Shown here in pieces: positions 1,318-23,765 of a DNA stretch of 64,000 bases. The position numbers and the translations under genes are program-made. The notes beneath the pieces were generated by a model. It did no database searches, was not told where the DNA came from, and saw nothing but the letters and a program-made list of their open reading frames with translations. Position 1 is the first letter of the stretch; each line of letters opens with the position of its first letter. Origin of the DNA: Deltaproteobacteria bacterium (GTDB taxonomy: Bacteria; Desulfobacterota; G020345765); the NCBI GenBank assembly GCA_020345765.1, contig CP070770.1, forward strand, positions 2,868,612-2,932,611. The letters run 5' to 3'.

Positions 1318-3597
1318 ATGAAACCATCCCGGTATGTCTTTACCCTCCTGGGCTTTATCTCCATCATCAGCCAGATAATCCTGATGCGCCGGCTGATGGT
1401 GATCTTTTCCGGCAACGAGCTCAGCGTGGGGGTTGTCCTTGCCAGTTGGATGCTCTGGACCGGGGTGGGAAGCATCCTCTTTAGCCGGCTGACCGAGGGC
1501 CTGGAAAGGGTACACCTTGTCCTCGCACTTACCTTGATAGGCATGGTTATCCTCCTCCCGCTGACCCTTCTTTTTACCTTCTGCATCAAGCCGATTCTGG
1601 GAATACCGCTTTCACAGATAGTAGATCTTCCAACGATCGTTATCTCCACCACCATTGTCCTGAGTCCCCTGTGTATCCTCTTGGGTTTCTCCTTTGTCCT
1701 CTGCTGCCGCCTGTTTTCCGGAGAGAGCTCATTAAATATTGGCCGGGTATATCTCTGGGAGGCGCTGGGCTCGGCCCTGGGGGGACTGAGCTTTAACTGG
1801 GTGGCCATCCCTCTGCTTTCTCCCTTTCAATCTGTGCTTATCCTCGATCTGATCATCTCGATAACGATCTGGTGGCTGCTTAAGCAGGGATTCAGGACTG
1901 AGGGGGCGAGACTGGTCCGGCGGGCAGTAGTGTGGTTGCCTCTTGCCCTGGCCGGGGCTTCCCTCATCTTGCTGGTTCTGCCCCAGCAGGTCTTGGACCT
2001 CGATCTTATTGCCCAGAATATCCGCTGGCGCGGCTTCAATCCGATCTATACTACCGAATCTCGCTATGGAAGCATCACCTTGAGCCGCACGGGCGGAGAA
2101 TATACCCTTTTTTATAACGGGTTTCCCGTCTTTACCTATCCCGATCCGATGCACGCGGAGGAGATTGCCCACCTGGCGATGCTGGAGCATCCCCGCCCAC
2201 GGGAGGTTCTCCTGGTGGGAGGGGGGCTTAATGGGGTGGTGGATGAGCTGCTGAAGTATCCCCTCACCCGACTCGACTATGTTCAGTTGGATCCGGAGAT
2301 AAACGAGATAGAGAAGGAAAAGATACCTCATACCCGGGAACTTCTCCGGGACAAACGGATACAGATATTCAATCTCGACGGCCGTTATTTCATTAACCAT
2401 CGGCCGCCCGGGAGCTATGATCTGGTTATTATCAACCTCTCCGGACCCGATACCGCCCAGCTGAACCGCTTCTATAGCCTTGAATTCTTTGAAGAGGTAA
2501 AGACGATTCTAAAAGAGGGAGGCGTCCTCGTTACCAGCGCCGGTGAGCCCGCTAATTATATCAGCGACGCCCAAGCCCGCTTCTTGGCCTGCATCTATGA
2601 AACACTAAGAAAGACTGTGGAGGAAGCAGTTATCCTTCCCCTGAGCCGAAACTACCTGATTGCCGCCGAGGCAAAGGGATACCTTACTTCTGACTATCAG
2701 CAGGTCGTCGAGCGCCTTCACACGAGGGGCATTAAAACCAGGTTTTTCCGGGATTACTATCTCCGCTACAACCTTGCTCCCGAAAGGATTAATTACACCC
2801 GCAAACGGGTAGAATCGGAACTGGGCAGGGGCTTTACCCTTAATCAGGACCTTAAGCCGATAGCTTACCTATACAATACCCTGCATTGGGAAACTTATTT
2901 TAATCTTGAGTGGGCCAAGCTCCTTAAGTGGCTTGACCGGATAAAGTTCCATCACTGTCTGGCTGCCCTGATTCTCTTGGTCCTTCCGGTTCTTATCTGG
3001 CTCAGGAACCGGCCGGGGAGAGGGATGATCGGGGTGATCTCTGCTATTGGTGTGATGGGCTTTGTCAGTATCAGCGCCGAGATCGTTATCCTGCTCAGCT
3101 TCCAGATATTTTACGGCTATATGTTCTATCAATTGGGATTGGTCATTACTGCCTTTATGGTGGGATTGAGTCTCGGGGCAATTCTGGCCCGGAGATTTTT
3201 AGACAGGGGGGTTGATTCCTCCCGGGCATTCCTTGTTCTACTTTTTTTTCTTGCCCTATATCCCCTGCTGTTATGGGCAGTCCTAAGCCTTCCCTTAAGC
3301 AAATTAGCGGAATTCCCGGCTACCTTGGTTTTTATGCTTCTGACTCTGATGGGGGCGGTGATCTGCGGGTTAATCTTCCAGTTGGGGGCGGATATATTCA
3401 TCCGGAAGGGCGGAGGGGTGGGTTTTTCCGCGGGGTGGGTCAACGGTGCTGATCATCTTGGAGCGGCATCCGGGGCTCTTCTTACCAGCGCGTTCTTAAT
3501 CCCGATCTTCGGCTTGCCAAGCACCCTTGTTTTTATAACAATCTTAGTATTCCTATCCATAGTGGTATTCTTATTTGATAAGGGATTAGCCAGATAA
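1318..3597 (+). CDS. fused polytopic membrane / spermidine-synthase-like (polyamine aminopropyltransferase family) protein
   Basis: 759-aa ORF. Hydrophobic N- and C-terminal blocks flank a class-I methyltransferase-fold core (VLLVGGGLNGVVDELLKYP...DLVIINLSGPDTAQLNRFYSLEFFEEVKTILKEGGVLV) typical of SpeE-like fusions. Confidence 0.8.
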   Translation: MKPSRYVFTLLGFISIISQIILMRRLMVIFSGNELSVGVVLASWMLWTGVGSILFSRLTEGLERVHLVLALTLIGMVILLPLTLLFTFCIKPILGIPLSQIVDLPTIVISTTIVLSPLCILLGFSFVLCCRLFSGESSLNIGRVYLWEALGSALGGLSFNWVAIPLLSPFQSVLILDLIISITIWWLLKQGFRTEGARLVRRAVVWLPLALAGASLILLVLPQQVLDLDLIAQNIRWRGFNPIYTTESRYGSITLSRTGGEYTLFYNGFPVFTYPDPMHAEEIAHLAMLEHPRPREVLLVGGGLNGVVDELLKYPLTRLDYVQLDPEINEIEKEKIPHTRELLRDKRIQIFNLDGRYFINHRPPGSYDLVIINLSGPDTAQLNRFYSLEFFEEVKTILKEGGVLVTSAGEPANYISDAQARFLACIYETLRKTVEEAVILPLSRNYLIAAEAKGYLTSDYQQVVERLHTRGIKTRFFRDYYLRYNLAPERINYTRKRVESELGRGFTLNQDLKPIAYLYNTLHWETYFNLEWAKLLKWLDRIKFHHCLAALILLVLPVLIWLRNRPGRGMIGVISAIGVMGFVSISAEIVILLSFQIFYGYMFYQLGLVITAFMVGLSLGAILARRFLDRGVDSSRAFLVLLFFLALYPLLLWAVLSLPLSKLAEFPATLVFMLLTLMGAVICGLIFQLGADIFIRKGGGVGFSAGWVNGADHLGAASGALLTSAFLIPIFGLPSTLVFITILVFLSIVVFLFDKGLAR

Positions 3598-5396: not shown

Positions 5397-5948
5397 TTAT
5401 CCTTCGCTAAGCCCTTGAGGATCTTCGTCTGAATGGGACGAAATTTGGTCACTACCACTGTCTCGTTCTTCTTTATAACCGGTTATTATCTCCAGTAAGA
5501 GTAGGATAACCCCAACTGTTATTGCCGTATCCGCGATATTGAAGGCGGGCCAGTGATAATAATCATACCAGTGAATATCCAAAAAATCAATTACGTATCC
5601 CAGACGGATCCGGTCAATGAAGTTGCCGAGTGCCCCTCCCAGGATCAGGGAGAAGGAAAAGCTCAGGAGGCGTTGGCGATCTTCGAGCTTGATAAAGAAG
5701 GAAAGGATCATCAGTATTGCTAGGATGGATATACTTATGAACAGCGGCCCCCGGAGTTCGGAGCTCAGGTTAGAGAACAGGCCGAAGGCAGCCCCAATGT
5801 TTCTAATATAGTTAATCTGAAAGAAGTTATTGAGGATCGCCACCGGCCGGTGGGGGAGAAAATGGCTGTCGATGTAATATTTACTAAACTGATCAATCAG
5901 GAGAATTACCGGAGCAACTCCAGTTAGGATGAGATATTTCTTTTTCAT
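5397..5948 (-). CDS. lspA: lipoprotein signal peptidase II
   Basis: 183 aa. LspA motifs are present (NxGAAFG as NIGAAFGLF; [11 protein letters not shown]). It overlaps the ileS stop by 4 nt, the classic ileS-lspA arrangement. Confidence 0.9.
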
Positions 5949-8728
5949 TTGGTCTTAAGCACCCGGAGGCACCTTTCACAAATAAGGGGATGATCCTTGT
6001 CGGTGCCTACCGAGGAGGAATAGTTCCAGCAGCGCTCACATTTCTGGCCCTCGGCGGGGAGAACCTGGATCTTTAGCCCTTCGATTTCCTGGCTTACATA
6101 TCCTTCCTTGTCGGAATCATCCGCAAGAGTTACCTGAGAGACAATGAACAAGGCCGGTAGTTCCTGAAGATACTCTTTCAGAAAGGGAAGGAGCTTCTTG
6201 GGGGATTGGATATTTATCTTAGCTTCAAGCGAGGAACCAATGAGCTTTTGCTGACGGGCCTGCTCCAGTGCCTTGAGTGCTTCGTTACGAACCTGGAGTA
6301 GTCGCTCCCATCTCTCGGTCAGATGATCGTCGAGGTGATCCTTTCTTGCTTCGGGGAATCCGGCTCCATGAACACTCTCCTCCTGGATTCCGGGGAGGTA
6401 GCTCCAGACATCCTCGGCAGTAAAGGAGAGGATAGGAGCAAGCAGCTTTGCCAAAGCCAGGGCAATCTCCCGGATGACGGTCTGGGCGGAGCGCCGTGCG
6501 GGAGAGCTGGCCGGGAAGGTATAAAGCCGATCCTTAAGGATATCCAGATAAAACGAGCTCAGGTCAACTACGCAGAAGTTATGCAGGGAGTGGTAGATAA
6601 CGTGGAATTCAAACTCGTCATATGCCTGGCGCACCCGGGTAATAAGCCGGTTCAATCGATAGAGAAGGAACCGGTCGATCTCGAGGAGTTCCTGGTAATC
6701 TACGCTGTCCTTCTCCGGATCGAAATCATAAAGGTTACCGAGGAGGAAGCGGAAAGTATTGCGGATCCGGCGATAGGCTTCCGTCAGCCGCTTAAGGATT
6801 TCCACTGAAAGCCGGATATCCTCGCGGTAGTCCTCGGCCGCTACCCAGAGACGAAGAAGGTCGGCCCCGTATTTATTGATTATCTCCTCCGGAGGGATAA
6901 AATTCCCCTTGGACTTGGACATCTTCTCTCCCTTGCCATCAACAACAAAGCCGTGGGTAAGGACTATCCGGAAGGGGGGAGTCCCCCGGGTTCCCACCGA
7001 GGCCAGAAGGGAGCTTTGAAACCAGCCCCGGTGTTGGTCGCTTCCCTCCAGATATAGATCCGCCGGCCAGTAAAGGGAATCGTTCGTCTCGAGGACGGCG
7101 GCATGGCTTACTCCGGATTCGAACCAGACATCAAGGATGTCCTCTTCCTTTTTAAAATCCTTTCCGCCACATTGGGAACACTTGGCATTTTTGAGGAGAA
7201 GCTCGGATACGGGAAGGGAAAACCAGCTGTCCGCTCCTTCCTTCTCGAAGCGCCGGGCAATATTGTCGATAGTGTCCTTATCCCCCAGGACGGAACTACA
7301 GGCGGAGCAGTAGAAGACCGTTATCGGAACCCCCCAGGAGCGCTGACGGGAGATGCACCAGTCAGGCCGGCTTTCCACCATGCCGTAGATCCTCTCTCTA
7401 CCCCAGCGGGGCACCCACTCCACCTCATCGATGCCTTTCAGGGCCTGATTGCGTAGCTCGTTGTGGTTCATCGAGATAAACCACTGTTCGGTAGCTCGAA
7501 ATATCACCGGTTCTTTGCATCTCCAGCAGTGAGGATAGGAATGCTCGATCATATCCTCCTTTAATAGGGCTCCGATTTCCTTTAGTTTCCGGTTAATTAG
7601 GCTATTTGCCTCAAATACATTAATACCCGGAAAGGGGATTGCCTCCTTGACGAACCGTCCCTCATCGTCCACCGGGGAATAGACCTCCAGACCGTATTTC
7701 AGGCCGATCTCGTAGTCCTCATGGCCGTGGCCCGGGGCGATGTGGACGCAGCCGGTTCCGGCCTCCAGGGTGACCAGTTCCCCGGTTATGATCAGGGAAT
7801 CCCGTTCAATGAAGGGATGGCGACAGACGGTGCCATCGAGCTTCTGGCCGGGGAAGCTTTCCAGGGTTTGGTAAGTCTTGAGATTTAGCTCCATTACCAC
7901 CTGTCCAAGGAGCCCTTCGGCCACAATGAGGACCTCTCCTTCAACCTCAACTGCCATATAGGTGAACCGGGGATGAAGGGCAATGGCCAGGTTGGCCATC
8001 AGGGTCCAGGGAGTGGTCGTCCAGATGAGCACCGAGACCTTTTTCCCTTTCAGGGAGGGGAAAAGCTTGCTCAGGTCGGATACTACCGGAAACTTGACGT
8101 AGATCGATGGTGAACGGTGAGCCTCATACTCCACCTCGGCCTCGGCTAGGGCGGTTTGACAGGAGGTACACCAATATACCGGCTTCTTTCTTCGATAAAG
8201 GGAGCCCTTATCGGCAAACTTCGCCAGTTCCCGGACAATAGTTGCCTCGTACTCGTGGTTCATCGTCAGGTAAGGCTCCTGCCAGATGCCGAAGACACCC
8301 AAGCGCTTGAACTCTTCCTGCTGGATATTAATATATTTCCGGGCATACTGCCGGCATCTCTCCCGGAACTCCACCTTGCTCAGCCCTTTTTTCTTTTCGC
8401 CCAACTCTTTATCCACCTGGAGTTCAATGGGAAGGCCGTGGCAGTCCCAGCCGGGAACGTAGATGCTCAGGAGACCCGCCATATTCTTGGATTTGACTAT
8501 GATATCCTTAAGGATCTTATTCAATGCAGTTCCGTTATGGATGTGACCGTTGGCATAGGGCGGGCCGTCGTGGAGGAGAAAGCTCTTTTTGCCCTGATTG
8601 GCTTTCAGGATCTTTTCGTAAATCCTTTTCTCCTCCCATGATTTAAGGATCTCCGGCTCCCTTTCGGCAAGATTCGCCTTCATTGGAAAGCGGGTTTGGG
8701 GAAGATTCAATGTGTCCCGATAATCCAT
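5945..8728 (-). CDS. ileS: isoleucine--tRNA ligase
   Basis: 927 aa. It has a class-I HIGH motif ([12 protein letters not shown]), KMSKS ([10 protein letters not shown]) and a C-terminal Zn-finger (CERCWNY...CERC). Confidence 0.95.
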
Positions 8729-8865
8729 GACTTACAAACCTTTATGCATGTTTTTGTGATTATCCAGTATTTCCGATAGTTTGTCAAGAATTTCAGCAGG
8801 TGGAGACTAGAGTTGAAATGATCAGATAAAGGTGGTATAGATGGGCTTGGAGGACTTGATAAACG

Positions 8866-10377
8866 ATGGATGATATTCTGCTCAAGGTAGAACTCCAAGG
8901 CCTAGGCGCCAAGGTGAAGGATCTGCCACCGGGTGTACGGCAAGGAGGGGCAGGACCGGCCGAAGGGACAGTCATTTCCTTTGGCGGCCGCCAAGCCAGC
9001 GTTCCCCTACATAGTCCCTTTGTGGCCCGATCCCCTTACTACCTAAAGAAGCAAACGGATCGATATTGGTTAAGTAGGGGCAGAAAAAAGATAAGGGAGA
9101 TACGGTTCCCCGAGACTCCGGTTTTTTACGGCAAACGGACATGGGATGGTGTTCCCTATTCCCAGATCGCACTGCTCCACGGTGAGGATTGTCTTGGATC
9201 AACCGTGGTTCAGTCCTGTATTTATCAGGAGGCAGGAAAAGGGTGCGGGTTCTGCGGGATAAACGAGTCACTGAAGAATAAAAAGACCATCGTCCGAAAG
9301 ACTCCCTCCCATCTGGCCGAGGTGGCGGCGGCAGCCGAATCGGAAGGGGTAAGGCATGCAGTGCTTACCAGTGGCTGCTGGGGTGACGACTCTTCGGTCA
9401 TTCACTACTTGGCCGAGTGCACCAGGGCGATCAAACAAAGAACCAGTCTTAAGGTACAAGCTCAATTTAACCCTCCGGCGAATCCGGAGCTGCTCAATGT
9501 GCTAAAGGATGCCGGGGTGGATACGGTAGGGATACATATCGAGTCCTTCGATTCCCCCGTACTTAAACAGGTCTCCCCGCATAAGGCCAGGGTGGGCCGG
9601 AAAGGCTACCGGCGTTGCTGGCAGGAGGCGGTAGGGATTTTCGGGAGGAATCAGGTGATAAGCTTCCTAATCGCCGGGTTGGGGGAGTCTAAACAATCCT
9701 TGATAAAGGGATGTGAGGAGTTGGCCAAATTGGGAGTATACCCGCATGTGGTCCCCTTGCGACCGATCCCCGGGACTAAAATGGCCAACCGCCGGCCCCC
9801 GGCTCCGGCAAGGATGAGGGGGATATACGAGAAGGCAGCTTTCGCAGTGAGGAATGCGGGTCTGTCCTGGAGGACGATTACGGCCGGTTGCGGGCGCTGC
9901 CCGGCCTGCTCGGCCCTAGGCGAGTTTGAGGATTATCTTGCCGAGAAAGAGGTTGCCTGCCAGATTGCCCGAACCGATGATGAACTCGATACCTGCTACC
10001 GGATCCGCCATCAGGTCTTTGTCGAGGAGCAGGGGATCTTCAAAGGCTCCGATCGGGATGAGATGGATGCGGAGGCGATTCATATCATTGCCAAGGCAGG
10101 AGATGTGGTGCAGGGCACGGTCAGACTCAATCGGAAGTATGACGGGCAGTGGTGGGGTAGCCGGCTGGCAGTAATCCCAAAGTACCGGGGGATAGCCGGG
10201 AGGTCTCTGGTACGCAAAGCCGAGGAGACAGTAAGGGAAAAAAAGGGAAAGGTGCTACGGGCCTATATCCAGGAGAACAGGGTTGATTTTTTTAAGCAAC
10301 TGGGGTGGAAGGATATTGGTGGTCCTACTCAGTACTGTGGGCTTCCCCATCAGCTCATGGAGGCTGATTTATATTAA
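8866..10377 (+). CDS. radical-SAM-like domain fused to a C-terminal GNAT acetyltransferase (MSMEG_0568/MSMEG_0567-like fusion)
   Basis: 503 aa. The N-terminal ~365 aa carry a Cys cluster QSCIYQEAGKGCGFCG and a TIM-barrel-like core. The C-terminal ~135 aa (nt ~9961-10374) have a GNAT signature (YRIRHQVFVEEQG...GRSLVRKAEE). The gene order with the next gene mirrors sll0785-sll0786-sll0787. Confidence 0.7.
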   Translation: MDDILLKVELQGLGAKVKDLPPGVRQGGAGPAEGTVISFGGRQASVPLHSPFVARSPYYLKKQTDRYWLSRGRKKIREIRFPETPVFYGKRTWDGVPYSQIALLHGEDCLGSTVVQSCIYQEAGKGCGFCGINESLKNKKTIVRKTPSHLAEVAAAAESEGVRHAVLTSGCWGDDSSVIHYLAECTRAIKQRTSLKVQAQFNPPANPELLNVLKDAGVDTVGIHIESFDSPVLKQVSPHKARVGRKGYRRCWQEAVGIFGRNQVISFLIAGLGESKQSLIKGCEELAKLGVYPHVVPLRPIPGTKMANRRPPAPARMRGIYEKAAFAVRNAGLSWRTITAGCGRCPACSALGEFEDYLAEKEVACQIARTDDELDTCYRIRHQVFVEEQGIFKGSDRDEMDAEAIHIIAKAGDVVQGTVRLNRKYDGQWWGSRLAVIPKYRGIAGRSLVRKAEETVREKKGKVLRAYIQENRVDFFKQLGWKDIGGPTQYCGLPHQLMEADLY

Positions 10378-10407
10378 AAGTCATGAAATAGTAATCAATA
10401 TCGAACA

Positions 10408-11367
10408 ATGCTTGAGAAGATTGTAAGCGAGATTCGCGGCTACGAGGGGATAACCCGGAAGCAAAGGATATCCGAGGTGGTGGAGACGCTCCGGACGGTA
10501 GCTGATTTTGGCTCCACGGTGCTCGGGCCGGGTGACGACAGTGGGGCGTTGAAGGACGGGGACGGTTATCTCCTACTGGCTGCCGACGGGATCTGGCCCA
10601 AATTTCTGAGAAAGGAGCCTTATGCCGCGGGGAAGGCGGCGGTGGTAGTGGGGGCAAACGATATCTACGCAATGGGAGGCAGACCCCTGGCAATGGTGAA
10701 TGTCGTAGCGGGGGGAGAAAAAGACTGGCTGAAAGAGGTTCTCCGGGGAATGGAGGAGGGATGTCAACGGTTACGGGTTCCCATGGTGGGCGGCCATTTC
10801 CATCCGGAGGCCGACGAGTGCTCCCTTTCGGTAGCAACCCTCGGTCGGGCGACGAATCTGCTGAAAAGCATCTCCGCTGAGGTAGGTGAAGAATTGATCC
10901 TTGCCCTTGACCTACGAGGGAAGCCGGGAGGATCAAGGGCAGTAAAGAGCTGGGACGCCTTTTCCGACACTTCTCCCGGTGAGCTTCGGTACCGTTTGGA
11001 GGCCTTAGTAAGTATTGCGGAAAACAAACTCGCCCGGGCGGCCAAGGATGTCAGTAACCCGGGGATTTTAGGCTCTATTAGCACTCTACTTGAGTCCTCA
11101 AAGAAGGGAGGATATATTGAGATTGAGAGAATTCCTCGGCCAAAAGGAGTTACACTCCGCGAGTGGCTTAAGGTATTCCCAAGTTACGGATTTGTCCTCA
11201 GCGCGAGAAGCCAGGATAGCTCGAGATGTCTTCAGATCTTCCGGGAGCGGGGAGTTGCCGCCGAGGTAGTCGGAACGGTAACCGATGCTCAAAAGATTGA
11301 GTTGAGCTATCAGAGCAAAAAGGCAGTCCTTTTCGATCTTTCCCGGGAGGGAATTATCGGAATATAA
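10408..11367 (+). CDS. AIR-synthase-related (PurM/ThiL/HypE superfamily) protein, sll0787-like
   Basis: 319 aa. It has the PurM-superfamily N-domain motif GPGDDSGALKDGDGYLLLAADGI...GANDIYAMGGRPLAMV. It lies directly downstream of the rSAM-GNAT gene. Confidence 0.7.
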   Translation: MLEKIVSEIRGYEGITRKQRISEVVETLRTVADFGSTVLGPGDDSGALKDGDGYLLLAADGIWPKFLRKEPYAAGKAAVVVGANDIYAMGGRPLAMVNVVAGGEKDWLKEVLRGMEEGCQRLRVPMVGGHFHPEADECSLSVATLGRATNLLKSISAEVGEELILALDLRGKPGGSRAVKSWDAFSDTSPGELRYRLEALVSIAENKLARAAKDVSNPGILGSISTLLESSKKGGYIEIERIPRPKGVTLREWLKVFPSYGFVLSARSQDSSRCLQIFRERGVAAEVVGTVTDAQKIELSYQSKKAVLFDLSREGIIGI

Positions 11368-11526
11368 TCATACCAAATAAATCTGTAGACACCAATGGGC
11401 TTTGAGGATATACTTATATAGTGCAATTAAATAGAAATGATATTATAAATACAGACAGATAGACAAATCATAAGCACTAAATCCTAATCCGCAAAAGGCG
11501 GATTCAAATGATCTAAATTCAAAGTA

Positions 11527-11572
11527 CAAAACCCTGTCCTGAGTTTATCTAAGGGCCCAGGATAAGGTTTTG
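11527..11572. repeat. imperfect 17-bp-arm palindrome carrying the CCTGTCCTGAG repeat motif
   Basis: CAAAACCCTGTCCTGAG (11527-11543) pairs with CCCAGGATAAGGTTTTG (11556-11572). It is intergenic. Confidence 0.5.
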
Positions 11573-11702
11573 AACATTAGATATTGGGATTTGGAATTAG
11601 AATTTTAATAATGATGGATAGAATACTATCCGCAAGTATTTTAGATGATTCAGATAAGTAATACGTGGAGCATATTCCAGGACTAAAGAAGGAGGCTTGA
11701 AG

Positions 11703-13040
11703 ATGGAATATCAGGCCTGGTTCCAGTGTATTGGGGAGTGCGGTGAGAAGCACAGGCTCGACGAAGTTGTCTATAAATGCAACAGCTGCGGTGGATTGCT
11801 TGAGGTCAGACACGATATCAAGATGCTGAAGCAGCAGAAACCTTATTACTGGATGAAGCTTTTTGACGACCGCTATCTCCGCACCGAATGGCCCTACGGA
11901 AGCGGGGTCTGGGGGAAAAAAGAGATAGTCTGCCCGGTGGTAGACAACGATAATGTGGTTTCGTTGTACGAGGGAGGAACAAATCTTTTCTGGGCGGAGC
12001 GCTTGGGCAGTGAGATCGGCCTGGAAGATCTCTGGATCAAGCAGTGCGGAAACAGCCATTCCGGCTCCTTTAAGGATCTGGGGATGACCGTGCTGGTCTC
12101 CATGGTCAAGCAGATACGGGTCACCGGCAATTGGATCCCCGCGGTAGCCTGTGCCTCTACCGGGGATACCTCGGCATCACTGGCCGCTTACTGCTCGGCG
12201 GCCAGCATTCCGGCGATAGTGTTTCTCCCGAAAAACAAGGTCTCCAGTTCCCAGTTGGTCCAACCCATTGCCAATGGTGCCCTGACCATTTCCCTGGACA
12301 CCGACTTCGATGGCTGTATGAAGATAGTCCAAGAGGTCTGCGCCAAGAATAACATTTATCTGGCAAACTCCATGAACTCCCTGCGGATCGAAGGGCAGAA
12401 GACAGTGGGTATTGAGATCGTACAGCAGTTTGACTGGGAAATACCGGATGTCGTGATCATCCCCGGAGGAAACCTGGGAAATGTTACCGCCCTGGGGAAA
12501 GGATTCCTCCTGATGAAGGAACTGGGTATAGTTAATAATCTACCCCGGATCGTTTGTGCCCAATCGGCCCGGGCAAATCCCCTTTATCAGAGCTATCTTA
12601 CCGGTTTTAAAGAATACCATCCGATCAAAGCGAAGAAAACTATCGCCAGCGCGATCCAGATCGGAAATCCGGTAAGTATAAACAAGGCGATAAATATCAT
12701 GAAGAAGTTCGATGGCATTGTTGAGCAGGCAACCGAGGACGAGCTAGCTAACGCGGCCGCCCGGGCCGATCGGACCGGGCTGTTTTGCTGTCCCCACACC
12801 GGGGTTGCCCTGGCCGCTTTGTTTAAGTTGATCGAAGGGAAGGAGATTGGGCCTAAGGAACGGGTAGTGGTAATCTCAACTGCCGATGGGCTGAAGTTCC
12901 CTGACTTCAAGATAAAGTATCACGAGAAAAAACTGAAGGGGGTTGAGTCCCGTTATGCCAACCTGCCGGTGGAAGTCCCGGCAAAATACGATATCGTCAG
13001 GGATACTATTTTTAAAATATTGGATAAGCAGTTACCCTGA
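11703..13040 (+). CDS. thrC: threonine synthase
   Basis: The ORF track starts at TTG 11697. ATG 11703 sits 7 nt after AAGGAGG. It has an N-terminal Zn-ribbon (CIGECGEKH...CNSCGG) and a PLP lysine context ([13 protein letters not shown]). Confidence 0.9.
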
Positions 13041-14263: not shown

Positions 14264-14314
14264 TACCTGCTCGTGCTCGACTTCCTCGTTCTCCCGAAGG
14301 GATATGGAAGTGCC

Positions 14315-16507
14315 ATGCGAAGGCTATTGATGGTTTCGAACCGGCTGCCGTTCAGCATCGAGAAAAGAAAAGATAGTCTGCAATTCCGCCCCAGCGTCGG
14401 CGGCCTGGCCACCGGGTTAGAATCATTCTATAAATCATACCAGAGCCTATGGGTCGGATGGCCGGGAATTGCGCTGGATAAGATAAAGGAAGAGAGCGAG
14501 GCGATCAAGACAAAGCTGAATTCCGAGTTCAACTGCCACCCGGTATTCCTTACCCAAAGTGATATTGAAAATTACTACTACGGTTTCTGTAACCGGACCA
14601 TCTGGCCCCTTTTCCATTACTTTAACCAATACGTGATTTATGACGAAAGATTATGGAGATCTTATAAGAGAGTCAATGAATTCTATTGTGATGTAGTTAT
14701 GGAGGTGGTAAGGGACGATGATTTAATTTGGATCCATGATTATCACCTAACCTTACTTCCCCGGCTCATCAGGGAGAGAAGGCCTGATGCCACCATCGGC
14801 TTTTTCCTCCATATTCCCTTCCCCTCATACGAGATATTCCGCTTGCTCCCCTGGCGAAAGGAGATACTGGAAGGGCTCTTGGGAGTGGATGTTATCGGCT
14901 TTCATACCTACGATTATGTCCAGCATTTTGTCAATAATGTCCATCGCATATTAGGCTACGAATACAAAATGGGTCGCATTGTTGCCGGGAATTGCGTTGT
15001 GATGCCGGATGCATTTCCCATGGGAATAGATTACCAGCGATTCTCCGAGGCTGCACAGGAACCAGAGGTGCGAAAGGAGATGATCAGGTTTCAAAAAAAA
15101 TTGGGAGAATGTAAGGTTGTTCTTTCGATAGACCGCCTGGACTATTCTAAAGGAATTCCGCAACGTTTAGAGGCCTTTGATACTTTTTTAGAGAGAAATC
15201 CAGAATATCGGGAAAAGGTAGTTATTATCCTGGTGGCAGTGCCTTCCCGCACTCAGGTAGAGCATTACCGGATGCTGAAGAAGCAGGTGGATGAACTTGT
15301 TGGCCGGATTAACGGAAAATATGGAACAATCGGCTGGGTACCGATCTTGTATCTCTATCATGCGGTATCCTTTCCCAGCCTCGCGGCCCTGTACCGGATC
15401 TCCGATGTTGCCTTTCTCACCCCTCTCCGGGATGGGATGAATCTCATCGCCAAGGAGTATATTGCGTCAAAGACCGAGGGGAGAGGGGTCTTGGTATTGA
15501 GCGAGATGGCGGGAGCATCAAGGGAGTTGGGAGAGGCGATCATAGTAAATCCCCAGGACACCGAGGAGTTGGTAGAAGCTTTGGGAAGGGCATTAAAAAT
15601 GTCGGAACAGGAACAGGAGGAACGCAATCGGGCAATGCAAGAGCGCTTGCAGCGATACGATATTGCACGGTGGGTAGAGGAGTTCATTGATCGGTTACTC
15701 TATGCCAAAAAGCTCCAAAGAGAAACAAATGTGAAGATACTGACTTCCAAAACGAATAGCAGGTTGGTCGGCGAATATCGCAAGAGCAAGAAGAGGCTCT
15801 TGCTCTTGGATTATGATGGCACCCTCATTCCCTTTTTTGGGAAACCGGAAGAGGCAAGACCGGATGATGAGCTTCTGAGGCTACTGGAGAAGCTCACGGA
15901 AGACCCGAAAAATCAAGTAGTGCTTATAAGTGGTCGGGACAAGGATACCATGGAGAGATGGTTCGGTAAACTAAAACTGAATTTATTGGCGGAACACGGC
16001 ATATGGATAAAAGAAAAAGGAAAAGAAAAGAAATGGGAGATGATAGAACCTTTAACCGACGAGTGGAAAAAGGATATTCATCCGGTCCTGGAACTGTACA
16101 TGGATAGAACCCCCGGCTCCTTTATCGAGGAGAAGGGTTTTTCCTTGGTCTGGCACTACCGGAAAGCCGATCCCGACTTAGGCACAAAAAGGGCCAGGGA
16201 GTTGATAGAGGTTCTCGAGAATCTTACCGTTAACCTTAATCTGCGGGTTTCGGGTGGGAATAAAGTGGTTGAAATAAGGAGTACCAGGACAGATAAGGGT
16301 CGGGCGGCAATGCGTTGGACTTCACAAAAAAAGTGGGACTTCCTTTTAGCCGCCGGGGATGATTTAACCGACGAGGACCTTTTTGCCGTTATTCCCGAGA
16401 CCGGTTACTCGATAAAAGTCGGCATCAGTCCCTCGAAAGCGAGGCTAAATCTGTATCTCCCGAATGATCTACGCTCGCTCCTGAAAGAATTGATTGGAGG
16501 AGGTTAG
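14315..16507 (+). CDS. bifunctional trehalose-6-phosphate synthase / phosphatase (OtsA-OtsB fusion)
   Basis: The GT20 N-terminal domain shows LLMVSNRLPF, WVGWPG and IWIHDYHL. The C-terminal HAD phosphatase domain shows LLLLDYDGTL. The ORF track uses GTG 14273; ATG 14315 is in frame and more plausible. Confidence 0.85.
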   Translation: MRRLLMVSNRLPFSIEKRKDSLQFRPSVGGLATGLESFYKSYQSLWVGWPGIALDKIKEESEAIKTKLNSEFNCHPVFLTQSDIENYYYGFCNRTIWPLFHYFNQYVIYDERLWRSYKRVNEFYCDVVMEVVRDDDLIWIHDYHLTLLPRLIRERRPDATIGFFLHIPFPSYEIFRLLPWRKEILEGLLGVDVIGFHTYDYVQHFVNNVHRILGYEYKMGRIVAGNCVVMPDAFPMGIDYQRFSEAAQEPEVRKEMIRFQKKLGECKVVLSIDRLDYSKGIPQRLEAFDTFLERNPEYREKVVIILVAVPSRTQVEHYRMLKKQVDELVGRINGKYGTIGWVPILYLYHAVSFPSLAALYRISDVAFLTPLRDGMNLIAKEYIASKTEGRGVLVLSEMAGASRELGEAIIVNPQDTEELVEALGRALKMSEQEQEERNRAMQERLQRYDIARWVEEFIDRLLYAKKLQRETNVKILTSKTNSRLVGEYRKSKKRLLLLDYDGTLIPFFGKPEEARPDDELLRLLEKLTEDPKNQVVLISGRDKDTMERWFGKLKLNLLAEHGIWIKEKGKEKKWEMIEPLTDEWKKDIHPVLELYMDRTPGSFIEEKGFSLVWHYRKADPDLGTKRARELIEVLENLTVNLNLRVSGGNKVVEIRSTRTDKGRAAMRWTSQKKWDFLLAAGDDLTDEDLFAVIPETGYSIKVGISPSKARLNLYLPNDLRSLLKELIGGG

Positions 16508-16511
16508 GATA

Positions 16512-17729
16512 ATGCGAAGTTTAGAAGATTATCGAAAGGTTGTCGGAGACGAGGTTATCGAGGGGATATGCCGACGGGTAAGAAAGCTTTACGGAAAGCA
16601 TATTTTAAACATCAATTCTACCTATCAGGGTGGCGGGGTTGCCGAGATCTTAAACAGTCTCATACCCCTAATGAACGGGATCGGGCTTGATGCGGGTTGG
16701 AGAATACTCCATGGCACCCCGGATTTTTTTACCGTAACCAAGAAGTTCCATAACGCCCTTCAGGGGGAACCAATTAGGTTTACTGATATGAAGAGGCGGC
16801 TCTATATTCAGGCAAACGAAGATTTCTCCACATATACGCACATCGACCATGATTGTGTAATTATCCACGACCCCCAGCCCCTCCCGCTCATAGAATTTTA
16901 CAAAAAAAGGCAGCCGTGGGTTTGGAGGTGCCATATTGACGTATCGAGTCCGAACGAAGAGGCCTGGGAATTCCTTAAACCATTCATCCTTAGATATGAC
17001 TTGGTTATTTTCTCTAACGAGGGATATAAAAAGAAGGATATTCCGGTAGAACAGAGGATCATTTGTCCTGCTATCGATCCTCTCTCCCCCAAGAATATAG
17101 AGATTTCCGAGAGACTGATGGCAAAATATCTCAAAAAATTTGGGGTGGACACGGATAAACCATTGGTAACCCAGATATCGAGGTTTGATAAGTGGAAGGA
17201 CCCGGAGGGAGTGCTGGAAGTATTCAAGCTGGTTAGGGAAAAAGTTGATTGTCGGTTGATTCTGTGCGGTAATATGGCAACGGACGATCCGGAAGGAATG
17301 GAAATCTACGAAAAAACCGCAAAGGAGGCACAATCTCTAATTAAAAATGGGGATGCGATGTTGGTAAGGGAACCTGCCAGTTCTAACTTCATTTTCATTA
17401 ATGCCTTGCAGCGGAAATCCTCCGTTATTATGCAGAAGTCTACCAGGGAAGGCTTTGCTCTCACGGTAACGGAATCGATGTGGAAGGAGACCCCGGTTGT
17501 GGGTTCTAATGTAGGCGGCATCCCGCTACAAATAGAAGACGGGAAAAACGGTTTTTTGGTTGAGCCCTCTGACCTAAAGGGAGCTGCCGATAGGGTGATA
17601 AAGATTTTGCGGGAGCCTAAATTGTCAAAGGAGATGGGCAGACAGGCCAAAGAGACAGTGAAAGAGAAGTTCCTTATAACAAGATTGCTGACCGATTATT
17701 TAGATTTACTTAATATGCTATTAAGATAA
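16512..17729 (+). CDS. GT4 glycosyltransferase, trehalose glycosyl-transferring synthase (TreT)-like
   Basis: ATG 16512 follows GGAGGAGG. The N-terminus LEDYRKVVGDEVIEGI...INSTYQGGGVAEIL and a GT-B C-terminal domain (REGFALTVTESMWKETPVV) resemble TreT-type trehalose synthases. Confidence 0.65.
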   Translation: MRSLEDYRKVVGDEVIEGICRRVRKLYGKHILNINSTYQGGGVAEILNSLIPLMNGIGLDAGWRILHGTPDFFTVTKKFHNALQGEPIRFTDMKRRLYIQANEDFSTYTHIDHDCVIIHDPQPLPLIEFYKKRQPWVWRCHIDVSSPNEEAWEFLKPFILRYDLVIFSNEGYKKKDIPVEQRIICPAIDPLSPKNIEISERLMAKYLKKFGVDTDKPLVTQISRFDKWKDPEGVLEVFKLVREKVDCRLILCGNMATDDPEGMEIYEKTAKEAQSLIKNGDAMLVREPASSNFIFINALQRKSSVIMQKSTREGFALTVTESMWKETPVVGSNVGGIPLQIEDGKNGFLVEPSDLKGAADRVIKILREPKLSKEMGRQAKETVKEKFLITRLLTDYLDLLNMLLR

Positions 17730-22652: not shown

Positions 22653-23765
22653 ATGAGAGATATTAAAATAGCTATCGCCGGAGTAGGGAACTGCGCCAGC
22701 TCCCTGGTCCAGGGGATTGAATATTACCGCAATAACGGGTCGAAAGATACCATGGGGCTTATGCACTGGGATTTCGGGGGATATCTCCCTACCGATATCA
22801 AAGTAGTTGCTGCATTCGACATTGACCAACGGAAGGTTCGGCAGCCGCTTAACCAGGCGTTGTTCTCGCCTCCTAATTGTACCAAGACAATCTGGAAAGA
22901 TATGCCCGAAAGCGAGGTTATCGTTCAGATGGGCCCGGTTCTGGATGGGGTTTCCGAGCACATGAGCAGTTACGCCCCGGACAAGTCCTTCGTGGTGGCC
23001 GACGAATCCCCGGTTGACGTGGCCAAGATACTCAAGGAGAGCAGGGCGGAGATACTCCTGTCCTATCTCCCGGTAGGGTCAGAGAAGGCGGTCCAATACT
23101 ATGCCGATTGTTGTCTTAAAACAGGCGTAAGTTTAGTAAACTGCGTGCCGGTCTTTATCGCTTCCAATCCAGTTTGGGAGCAGAAATTTAAAAAGAGAGG
23201 AATCCCGGTAGCGGGGGATGATATCAAGTCCCAATTAGGTGCTACCGTCGTCCACCGAAATCTGACCAGGCTCTTTGCTGACCGCGGGGTAAAGCTGGAT
23301 CGGACCTACCAGTTGAATACCGGGGGGAATACCGATTTTCTCAATATGCTTAACCGGGAGAGATTGATATCGAAGAAGATCTCCAAGACCGAAGCGGTGC
23401 AGTCCCAGTTGGAAAACCCCCTGGAAGAGGACAATATCCACATCGGCCCCAGCGATTATATCCCCTGGCAGAAGGACAATAAGGTATGTTTCCTGCGCAT
23501 GGAAGGGAGAGGTTTTGCCGGAATACCATTATCTTTAGAGCTACGATTGTCGGTTGAGGATTCCCCCAACAGCGCCGGGGTGGCCATTGATGTGATAAGA
23601 TACTGCCGGCTGGCCCGAGACCGAGGGGAGGGCGGCGCTCTCTTACCCATTTCCGCCTATTGTATGAAACATCCTCCCCAGCAGATGAACGAAGCCGAGG
23701 CCCGGGCATTAATCGAGGAATTTATCCGGCAGAGCAAAGTCACCTCCGCAACCGCCCGGTTTTAA
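22653..23765 (+). CDS. myo-inositol-1-phosphate (inositol-3-phosphate) synthase
   Basis: 370 aa. The N-terminus IAIAGVGNCASSLVQGIEYY matches the bacterial/actinobacterial Ino1 NAD-binding motif. Confidence 0.8.
   Translation: MRDIKIAIAGVGNCASSLVQGIEYYRNNGSKDTMGLMHWDFGGYLPTDIKVVAAFDIDQRKVRQPLNQALFSPPNCTKTIWKDMPESEVIVQMGPVLDGVSEHMSSYAPDKSFVVADESPVDVAKILKESRAEILLSYLPVGSEKAVQYYADCCLKTGVSLVNCVPVFIASNPVWEQKFKKRGIPVAGDDIKSQLGATVVHRNLTRLFADRGVKLDRTYQLNTGGNTDFLNMLNRERLISKKISKTEAVQSQLENPLEEDNIHIGPSDYIPWQKDNKVCFLRMEGRGFAGIPLSLELRLSVEDSPNSAGVAIDVIRYCRLARDRGEGGALLPISAYCMKHPPQQMNEAEARALIEEFIRQSKVTSATARF

Follow-up and report, generated by a model that had tools for sequence, protein, structure and literature searches.

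The Nit1C gene cluster has been known since 2005, and no reaction has been assigned to its radical S-adenosylmethionine (SAM), GNAT and AIR-synthase-like genes. The core, NitD/NitE/NitF, corresponds to Sll0785/Sll0786/Sll0787 and to MSMEG_0568/MSMEG_0567 (Podar et al. 2005, PMC1199592). The cluster definition includes a subfamily-1 (sll0784-type) nitrilase encoded directly upstream of the radical-SAM gene; open reading frame (ORF) 1 of the cluster, Sll0783/MSMEG_0572, is DsrE/YchN-like, and ORF6 is a conserved hypothetical protein of ~100 amino acids (aa) (PMC1199592). The same study noted that the nearest relatives of the Nit1C radical-SAM and AIR-synthase genes are archaeal. Nitrogen starvation strongly induces Nit1C in cyanobacteria and mycobacteria, and Pseudomonas requires the cluster for cyanide assimilation; the phenotypes published for Synechocystis, M. 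smegmatis and Pseudomonas concern nitrogen starvation, cyanide, NADPH/peroxide resistance and redox balance. Here we compare with these systems a gene pair from a Deltaproteobacteria bacterium, located in a 64-kb window (the whole stretch analysed, 64,000 nucleotides (nt) of contig CP070770.1), in which a radical-SAM domain and a GNAT acetyltransferase are fused into a single protein and a PurM-like gene follows.

Coordinates and domain models agreed with a first-pass annotation of the window in that a 503-aa ORF joins the radical-SAM and GNAT domains, a PurM-superfamily gene starts 30 nt downstream, and ileS and thrC flank the pair (Table 1). The order radical SAM, GNAT, AIR-synthase-like protein, which that annotation had equated with the order in Nit1C, is the one found in the Vreelandella cluster L049 and described in 2005. 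The fusion passed two curated family models: residues 9-355 aligned with positions 2-354 of the 354 in TIGR04043 (MSMEG_0568 radical SAM; 346.8 bits, cut-off 303.7), and residues 364-502 matched TIGR04045 (MSMEG_0567/Sll0786 GNAT; 109.4 bits, cut-off 68.45). Broader models gave 45.7 bits for Radical_SAM (PF04055; cut-off 29.5), 190.7 for the 'variant_rSAM' domain (NF045502) and 29.5 for GNAT (PF00583; cut-off 20.7), and weak hidden Markov model (HMM) matches of the radical-SAM part were to LipS2, HmdB, BioB and PylB.

The PurM-like protein contains AIRS (82.3 bits) and AIRS_C (53.8 bits) domains and scored 317.5 bits with TIGR03267 (methanogenesis marker 2; cut-off 365) and 301.2 bits with TIGR04049 (sll0787 AIR synthase-like; cut-off 321.3), passing neither. 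Membership in the three Nit1C families thus held for the radical-SAM and GNAT parts and failed for the sll0787 family, the marker 2 model scoring slightly better. Intermediate scoring is a property of the whole clade; the Desulfobacterota counterparts reached 285-325 bits on the marker 2 model and 296-303 on the sll0787 model, whereas true archaeal marker 2 proteins passed TIGR03267 (405.7 bits for L108, 389.2 for L115) and reached 306-312 bits on the sll0787 model, which in turn was passed by the classical Nit1C protein of L049 (408.7) and by Firmicute L076 (380.7). Identity to the PurM-like protein was 47% in the Desulfobacterota group, 42% for archaeal marker 2 (Methanofastidiosum), 37% for classical Nit1C and 35% for the Firmicute/Actinobacterial type. 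Judged by sequence, the protein sits between the sll0787 and methanogenesis marker 2 families, and no equivalog model captures it.

A protein search with the fusion gave 986 homologues (E<=1e-10), and of these the best 120 were nearly all ~500-aa fusions; five of these 120 shared 73-83% identity with the query, and the others 44-51%. Named homologues came from Desulfatiglans, Desulfospira, Desulfobacula, Desulfatitalea and other Desulfobacterota, and such fusions, which number in the hundreds and are mostly from Desulfobacterota, already carry names, 'MSMEG_0568 family radical SAM protein' at NCBI and 'TIGR04043 family/TIGR04045 family' at JGI. When 1.84 billion cluster representatives were searched with a profile, 598 matched at E<=1e-30, fused and radical-SAM-only proteins being mixed among them. 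From reference genomes 240 loci were fetched, and occurrences were tallied on distinct radical-SAM sequences, 115 bacterial and 61 archaeal. The same gene order was found again in more than 100 independent loci; a chance adjacency of generic radical-SAM, GNAT and ThiL genes was rejected, since the arrangement recurs. Among the 115 bacterial loci, 66 had the radical-SAM domain fused to GNAT, 108 had a GNAT in or near the locus and 79 had a PurM-like gene directly downstream; a DsrE/Sll0783-family protein was in or near 30 of them, a nitrilase homologue 8 and an MSMEG_0569-type flavoprotein 6. The radical-SAM and GNAT domains are separate proteins in many lineages, the fetched loci containing 56 solo radical-SAM and 45 solo GNAT ORFs. 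In five loci, actinobacterial and some from Bacillota (L034, L043, L048, L077 and L079), the PurM-like gene lies directly after the GNAT gene but convergently, on the opposite strand, unlike elsewhere.

The fused, nitrilase-free layout is the standard form in Desulfobacterota, sulfate-reducer-type anaerobes, and not the rare minimal version for which the first-pass annotation had taken it. Its suggestion that the nitrilase is accessory was borne out: with a nitrilase nearby in so few bacterial loci, that enzyme is dispensable for the three-domain core. It is this core, and not the nitrilase cluster, that is the widespread entity, and Nit1C looks to be one elaboration of it among several. The locus itself is a genuine and ordinary member of an already annotated system, whose function is read at the level of its domains.

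Several observations bear on how the pair is inherited and expressed. In neighbour-joining trees the window lineage formed its own branch, and the classical Nit1C clusters grouped separately with the Firmicute/Actinobacterial type. The GC content of the pair, overall and at third codon positions, matches that of the adjoining genes, and the order ileS, fusion, PurM-like gene is maintained in the relatives at 73-83% identity; recent horizontal transfer was rejected, there being no compositional sign of it and synteny being conserved. The two genes are likely co-transcribed, because the 30-nt spacer between them contains no T-tract terminator; in relatives they abut or overlap (for example, 23 nt in L158). 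In the two close relatives whose sequence extends far enough, an equally bare succession is found, ileS, fusion and PurM-like gene being followed by a ~445-aa ORF, so the bare pair is a stable feature of the window lineage, across three genomes.

The cysteine triad of the fusion, C118/C127/C130, had been correctly read as C-x8-C-x2-C instead of the canonical C-x3-C-x2-C. The spacing is not peculiar to this locus; as the three cysteines are invariant in 108/108 distinct homologues, and as radical-SAM megaclusters with C-x8 and C-x9 spacings have been catalogued, uncharacterised (PMC9477430), it is a trait of the whole family. Equally invariant (108/108) are C342, C345 and C348, which are presumed to hold an auxiliary iron-sulfur cluster via three cysteines; C109 may be a fourth ligand but occurs in only 89/108. 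An invariant R-x-G-G-A-G-P-A motif occupies residues 25-32 of the radical-SAM part. In the PurM-like protein, the nucleotide-site motif D-x4-G-[AG]-x-P is represented by D85-IYAM-G90-G91-R-P93 (nt 10660-10686) and is invariant, as are the Asp/His residues.

The AlphaFold2 model of the fusion was confident (predicted local distance difference test (pLDDT) 91.7, predicted TM-score (pTM) 0.85). In Foldseek its barrel lay closest to HydE, followed by BioB, PylB, ThiH and NifB, with E values of 7e-9 to 1e-6 against the HydE/BioB/PylB/ThiH group, and the C-terminal domain superposed on SACOL1063, YjcF and ElaA, small GNATs of unknown function, with a TM-score of ~0.9; a profile search of the PDB likewise matched the GNAT domain to SACOL1063 (E 1e-21). 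None of the top 50 Foldseek matches covered both domains, and no solved structure closely related in sequence to the fusion was found. The model of the PurM-like protein (pLDDT 92.1) confirmed the PurM fold, HypE, SelD, ThiL and PurL being equidistant from it at 18-21% identity; its best PDB sequence match was HypE (5e-10).

We consider it probable, with a fair amount of room for doubt, that the pair is a two-gene operon, inherited vertically, from the anaerobe branch (Desulfobacterota for the most part) of the MSMEG_0568 / Sll0785-0786-0787 system, and that this system is a three-activity pathway acting on a small, probably amine-bearing metabolite. Beyond the observed membership of the radical-SAM and GNAT families, the conserved order, both folds and the invariant residues, the steps of such a pathway are modelled on the respective enzyme superfamilies. 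A [4Fe-4S] cluster on C118/C127/C130 would cleave SAM to the 5'-deoxyadenosyl radical inside a barrel of the HydE/BioB/PylB/ThiH type, while a second cluster on C342/C345/C348, left with one free iron site, could serve substrate binding or sulfur chemistry. The GNAT domain would then N-acylate an amine from an acyl-CoA, and the PurM-like enzyme would use ATP to phosphorylate the oxygen of a carbonyl group, for which the newly formed amide is the most plausible candidate; the activated carbonyl could drive cyclisation, amidine formation or dehydration, as in PurM, PurL and HypE, and a recurrent neighbour of amidotransferase fold would fit an amidine route of the PurL/PurQ kind. The GNAT step is placed in the middle because its gene is the middle one, because it is fused to the radical-SAM domain here, and because a fusion to a PurM-like domain is implied for MSMEG_0567. 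That implied fusion follows from the NCBIfam names TIGR04045 ('MSMEG_0567_GNAT') and TIGR04050 ('MSMEG_0567_Cter'); MSMEG_0567 has also been called selenophosphate-synthetase-like (PMC6039565). The nitrilase, flavoprotein, DsrE-like protein and transporters would be lineage-specific additions, none of them encoded near the window pair.

A number of points weigh against this assignment. The PurM-like protein misses both of its curated family cut-offs. None of the 61 distinct archaeal loci has a GNAT and only one has a PurM-like gene downstream, so the other two activities are not strictly required for the radical-SAM step, and the first-pass description of the pair as a minimal catalytic unit was too strong. 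The fetched loci are skewed towards relatives of the query, and the tallies accordingly describe that region of sequence and not the whole family; the trees are neighbour-joining without bootstrap; and the genome context inspected is that of the 64 kb. No GNAT-PurM fusion was seen in the 240 fetched loci, and a literature search found no demonstrated reaction or function for Sll0785-0787, MSMEG_0567/0568 or marker 2. What the substrate is and in which order the steps follow are our inference only.

The genes that usually accompany the pair elsewhere give mixed hints, some to sulfur (DsrE-like and DsrK/HdrD-like proteins, the SsuA-type transporter, HcyBio) and some to the catabolism of nitrogen compounds (arginase-family protein, carbamate kinase, amidohydrolase). 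Desulfobacterota loci fall into two main types. Type A loci carry upstream a BPL_N-like protein of glutamine-amidotransferase fold, a membrane protein resembling NarI, a CCG iron-sulfur protein resembling HdrD/DsrK, an unknown protein of 241 aa and an SsuA-family binding protein with permease and ATPase, often with a WrbA-like flavoprotein; type B loci encode an aldehyde dehydrogenase, URO-D-like and arginase-family proteins and a membrane protein. Further genes, for Amidohydro_2, Sll0783-family, OsmC and FdrA-like proteins, a GlcD-like FAD oxidase and carbamate kinase, appear in Firmicute, Desulfovibrio and actinobacterial loci. The nearest relatives outside the window clade have one of two sets, either a BPL_N-like protein accompanied by a 139-aa and a small DsrE-like protein, or a BPL_N-like protein with NarI-like and CCG proteins. 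The 241-aa protein (cluster c20), conserved in ~24 Desulfobacterota loci (L006, L010, L022-L024 and L046 among them; for example L023 6493-7218), has a Cys-rich C-terminus and no Pfam or NCBIfam match, and its gene, located upstream of the fusion, is flanked by the HdrD-like gene and by those of the SsuA-type transporter. None of all these neighbour families had a match in the window; what is particular to the window lineage is the absence of even the usual ones (SsuA-type ABC transporter, HdrD/NarI-like redox genes, DsrE-like protein).

A dedicated sulfur chemistry, in which a BioB/LipS2/HydE-like radical-SAM enzyme forms C-S bonds or handles thiols or sulfonates and is tied to thrC and the cystathionine-gamma-synthase-family gene, seems to us unlikely. 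HydE, BioB and LipS2 are the fold and HMM neighbours of the radical-SAM part, the three-Cys auxiliary motif is invariant, and sulfur-related neighbours are frequent in the 115 bacterial loci: HdrD/DsrK-like CCG proteins in 48, SsuA-family (sulfonate-type) binding proteins, which pass TIGR01728, in 45, DsrE-like proteins in 30 and NarI/DsrM-like proteins in 26. A homocysteine-biosynthesis gene (HcyBio, PF01837, with CBS), associated with sulfur incorporation, is found beside the radical-SAM gene in 39 of the 61 archaeal loci, usually immediately upstream, and the window pair is itself followed by thrC and a Cys_Met_Meta_PP gene. This support is, however, circumstantial context throughout; the adjacency to thrC is limited to one small lineage, with 330 nt between the pair and thrC, other loci suggest nitrogen-compound catabolism (arginase-family, aldehyde dehydrogenase, carbamate kinase, FdrA-like), and the phenotypes in the literature relate to nitrogen starvation, cyanide and redox balance.

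It is quite doubtful, too, that the pair is a reduced Nit1C, descended from or working with a full nitrilase cluster whose other genes were lost or lie elsewhere, and so the minimal unit of Nit1C chemistry. The three domain families and their order are those of Nit1C, and nearest relatives outside the clade retain beside the fusion the small DsrE-like protein, which a profile search identified as homologous to Sll0783/MSMEG_0572, making some loss of accessory genes in the window lineage plausible. Yet the classical Nit1C proteins are the most distant, at 37-41% identity for the radical-SAM part and 37% for the PurM-like protein as against 45-51% to Desulfobacterota and archaeal homologues; the trees place the classical clusters apart, few bacterial homologues have a nitrilase nearby, and the accessory genes are absent from the 64 kb. 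That the nitrilase, FAD oxidoreductase, glycosyltransferase and Sll0783-type genes are missing, as the first-pass annotation had stated, is true within the window by tblastn, profile search and MSMEG_0565 scores. No match to the L049 nitrilase was found there by tblastn, and the gene upstream is ileS, on the other strand; ORF1 and the MSMEG_0569-family flavoprotein gave no tblastn or profile match, and no ORF of at least 80 aa lies on the + strand from 11368 to 11696. A tblastn search of the window with the nitrilase, Sll0783-family and MSMEG_0569-type proteins and 20 further accessory families matched only the three core domains, and the downstream glycosyltransferases were rejected as MSMEG_0565 types (OtsA/B 44 bits and TreT 28 bits, cut-off 260). 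Full Nit1C clusters occurred among the fetched loci only in Proteobacteria, as in Vreelandella (regulator, Sll0783-family, nitrilase, radical SAM, GNAT, PurM-like, flavoprotein). Because the fused, nitrilase-free layout is standard in Desulfobacterota, the pair is not a stripped-down Nit1C.

Archaeal relatives of the radical-SAM part are solo proteins of ~355 aa from anaerobic methanotrophic archaea (ANME-1), metagenome-assembled genomes of Methanosarcinales, Alkanophaga, Syntrophoarchaeum, Methanolliviera, Methanoliparum and Bathyarchaeia (loci L033, L041, L052-L080 and L163-L222; for example L073 7214-9801), at 46-51% identity to the window domain; they score 351-373 bits on TIGR04043, above the window protein, and the retrieved archaeal loci include no classical cultured methanogen. 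In one Bathyarchaeota locus (L229 5968-7776) the radical-SAM gene is followed directly by a PurM-like gene without GNAT, the contig ending within the second gene; this would be a two-activity version of the system. No radical-SAM or GNAT gene was found within 8 kb of the archaeal marker 2 genes. In a Halobacteriota archaeon (L115 4495-9005) the true marker 2 gene (389 bits) stands directly behind genes for an SsuA-like binding protein, a permease and an ATPase, a transporter family that also lies upstream of the fusion in many Desulfobacterota loci, with an HdrB-like gene nearby. We give a similarly low probability to the radical-SAM/GNAT/PurM-like core being an old anaerobic module, common to Desulfobacterota and the methane- and alkane-oxidising archaea, that makes or processes an unknown metabolite or cofactor containing sulfur and nitrogen and was split up in the archaea; there the solo radical-SAM gene would have the homocysteine sulfur-incorporation gene as its neighbour, and marker 2 would be what persists of the PurM-like partner. 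If that were true, the bare operon by thrC and the cystathionine-synthase-like gene would be the simplest bacterial entry to both the Nit1C core and marker 2.

That the pair matures a metallocofactor, as HydE and HypE do, and makes no free metabolite is very improbable. HydE is the best structural neighbour of the barrel, HypE the best PDB sequence match of the PurM-like protein and marker 2 its top-scoring model, and the function would match the universal presence of the related marker 2 in methanogens; against this, HypE is fold-equidistant with SelD, ThiL and PurL, the neighbourhoods contain no recurrent gene for a scaffold or a target metalloenzyme, and the published activation complex of methyl-coenzyme M reductase does not include marker 2. 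Self-carbamoylation as in HypE was rejected, because the PurM-like protein ends ...REGIIGI and has no HypE-type C-terminal Cys.

Elp3, which modifies tRNA, also carries an N-terminal radical-SAM and a C-terminal GNAT domain in one polypeptide of ~500 aa, and the confident packing of the two domains in the fusion model would permit a shared active site; a mechanism of that kind, in which the GNAT domain binds acetyl-CoA as radical substrate and the radical-SAM domain takes a methyl hydrogen and attaches the carboxymethyl unit to a substrate, is nonetheless highly unlikely, and kinship with Elp3 was rejected, since Elp3 was found neither with NCBIfam nor by PDB profile search (E<=1) nor among the 50 best Foldseek matches, no structural match spans the whole chain, the two domains are often separate genes here, and the conserved partner is PurM-like.

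The organisation of the locus is given in Table 1. In the divergent intergenic region the sole strong sigma-70-like match is oriented towards ileS, and no + strand promoter was identified there. Upstream, ileS, lspA, lgt and an rpoH-like sigma factor gene lie on the strand opposite to the pair; thrC is followed by the gene for a cystathionine-gamma-synthase-family pyridoxal-phosphate enzyme (Cys_Met_Meta_PP), by genes for a bifunctional OtsA/OtsB and a TreT-like trehalose synthase, and then by his genes. The 330 nt between the PurM-like gene and thrC (11368-11696) are AT-rich and gene-free and contain promoter-like matches and a small hairpin; an Rfam search of the whole window, this spacer included, gave zero matches.

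Table 1. Features of the radical-SAM-GNAT/PurM-like locus, in positions of the 64-kb window.
Feature	Position	Strand	Basis
ileS	5945..8728	-	TIGR00392, 975 bits
Divergent intergenic region, ileS (-) and radical-SAM-GNAT gene (+)	8729..8865	.	sequence
GGAGG ribosome-binding site, 12 nt before the fusion ATG	8849-8853		sequence
Radical-SAM-GNAT fusion gene, 503 aa, ATG start	8866..10377	+	ORF call, family and domain models
MSMEG_0568-family radical-SAM part	8866..9933	+	TIGR04043
N-terminal beta-rich domain and radical-SAM barrel	residues 1-356 of fusion		
Variant SAM-cluster motif C118-x8-C127-x2-C130 (in QSC-IYQEAGKG-C-GF-CG)	9217..9255	+	
C342-x2-C345-x2-C348, presumed auxiliary iron-sulfur cluster site	9889..9909	+	
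GNAT domain, MSMEG_0567/Sll0786 family (residues 364-503)	9955..10374	+	TIGR04045
Spacer of 30 nt between fusion and PurM-like genes	10378..10407	+	
PurM-superfamily gene, ATP-utilising protein, 319 aa	10408..11367	+	ORF call, AIRS/AIRS_C domains
thrC	11697..13040	+	TIGR00260, 220 bits (cut-off 167)

Elsewhere in the window, two trehalose routes adjoin each other at 14273-17729, the bifunctional OtsA/OtsB (744 aa, 1032 bits) and the TreT-like synthase (411 aa), and an inositol-3-phosphate synthase homologue is encoded at 22653-23765; together these look like a compatible-solute region. A 759-aa protein encoded at 1318-3597 has a spermidine-synthase domain confined to its middle (residues ~280-411) and scores well under the polyamine aminopropyltransferase cut-offs; it occupies the same position in relative L082.

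What the comparison adds to Nit1C is that its three activities form a far wider unit, mostly nitrilase-free, common in sulfate-reducer-type anaerobes and related to proteins of ANME and alkane-oxidising archaea and to methanogenesis marker 2. Experiments on the three-domain core need not involve nitriles, and two-gene versions such as the window pair are convenient for anaerobic heterologous reconstitution; the value of the locus lies in offering such a version and in its link to the archaeal radical-SAM and marker 2 proteins.

Set beside the known systems, the window pair shares with Nit1C the three domain families in identical order, a variant Cys spacing and the C-terminal C-x2-C-x2-C; it differs in the fusion, in having no nitrilase, DsrE-like ORF1, flavoprotein or glycosyltransferase gene nearby, in spacing (C-x9-C-x2-C in classical Nit1C radical-SAM proteins, C-x8-C-x2-C here) and in an identity of only 37-41%. 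With HydE, BioB, PylB and ThiH, all of which act on small molecules, the radical-SAM part has the barrel fold in common, whereas identity is 14-21%, the auxiliary motif is another, the spacing there is C-x3-C-x2-C, and the window protein bears an additional N-terminal beta domain with the invariant GGAGPA. Archaeal marker 2 genes stand without radical-SAM or GNAT neighbours and the PurM-like protein remains under their cut-off, yet TIGR03267 is its highest-scoring model. The closest likeness in layout is to the Desulfobacterota pairs (Desulfospira joergensenii DSM 10085, Desulfatitalea alkaliphila and Desulfosarcina cetonica; L111, L110 and L133), which, unlike the window lineage, usually carry type A or type B upstream genes, and which have the same fusion, downstream gene and motifs at 45-51% identity, their PurM-like proteins likewise falling between the two curated models.

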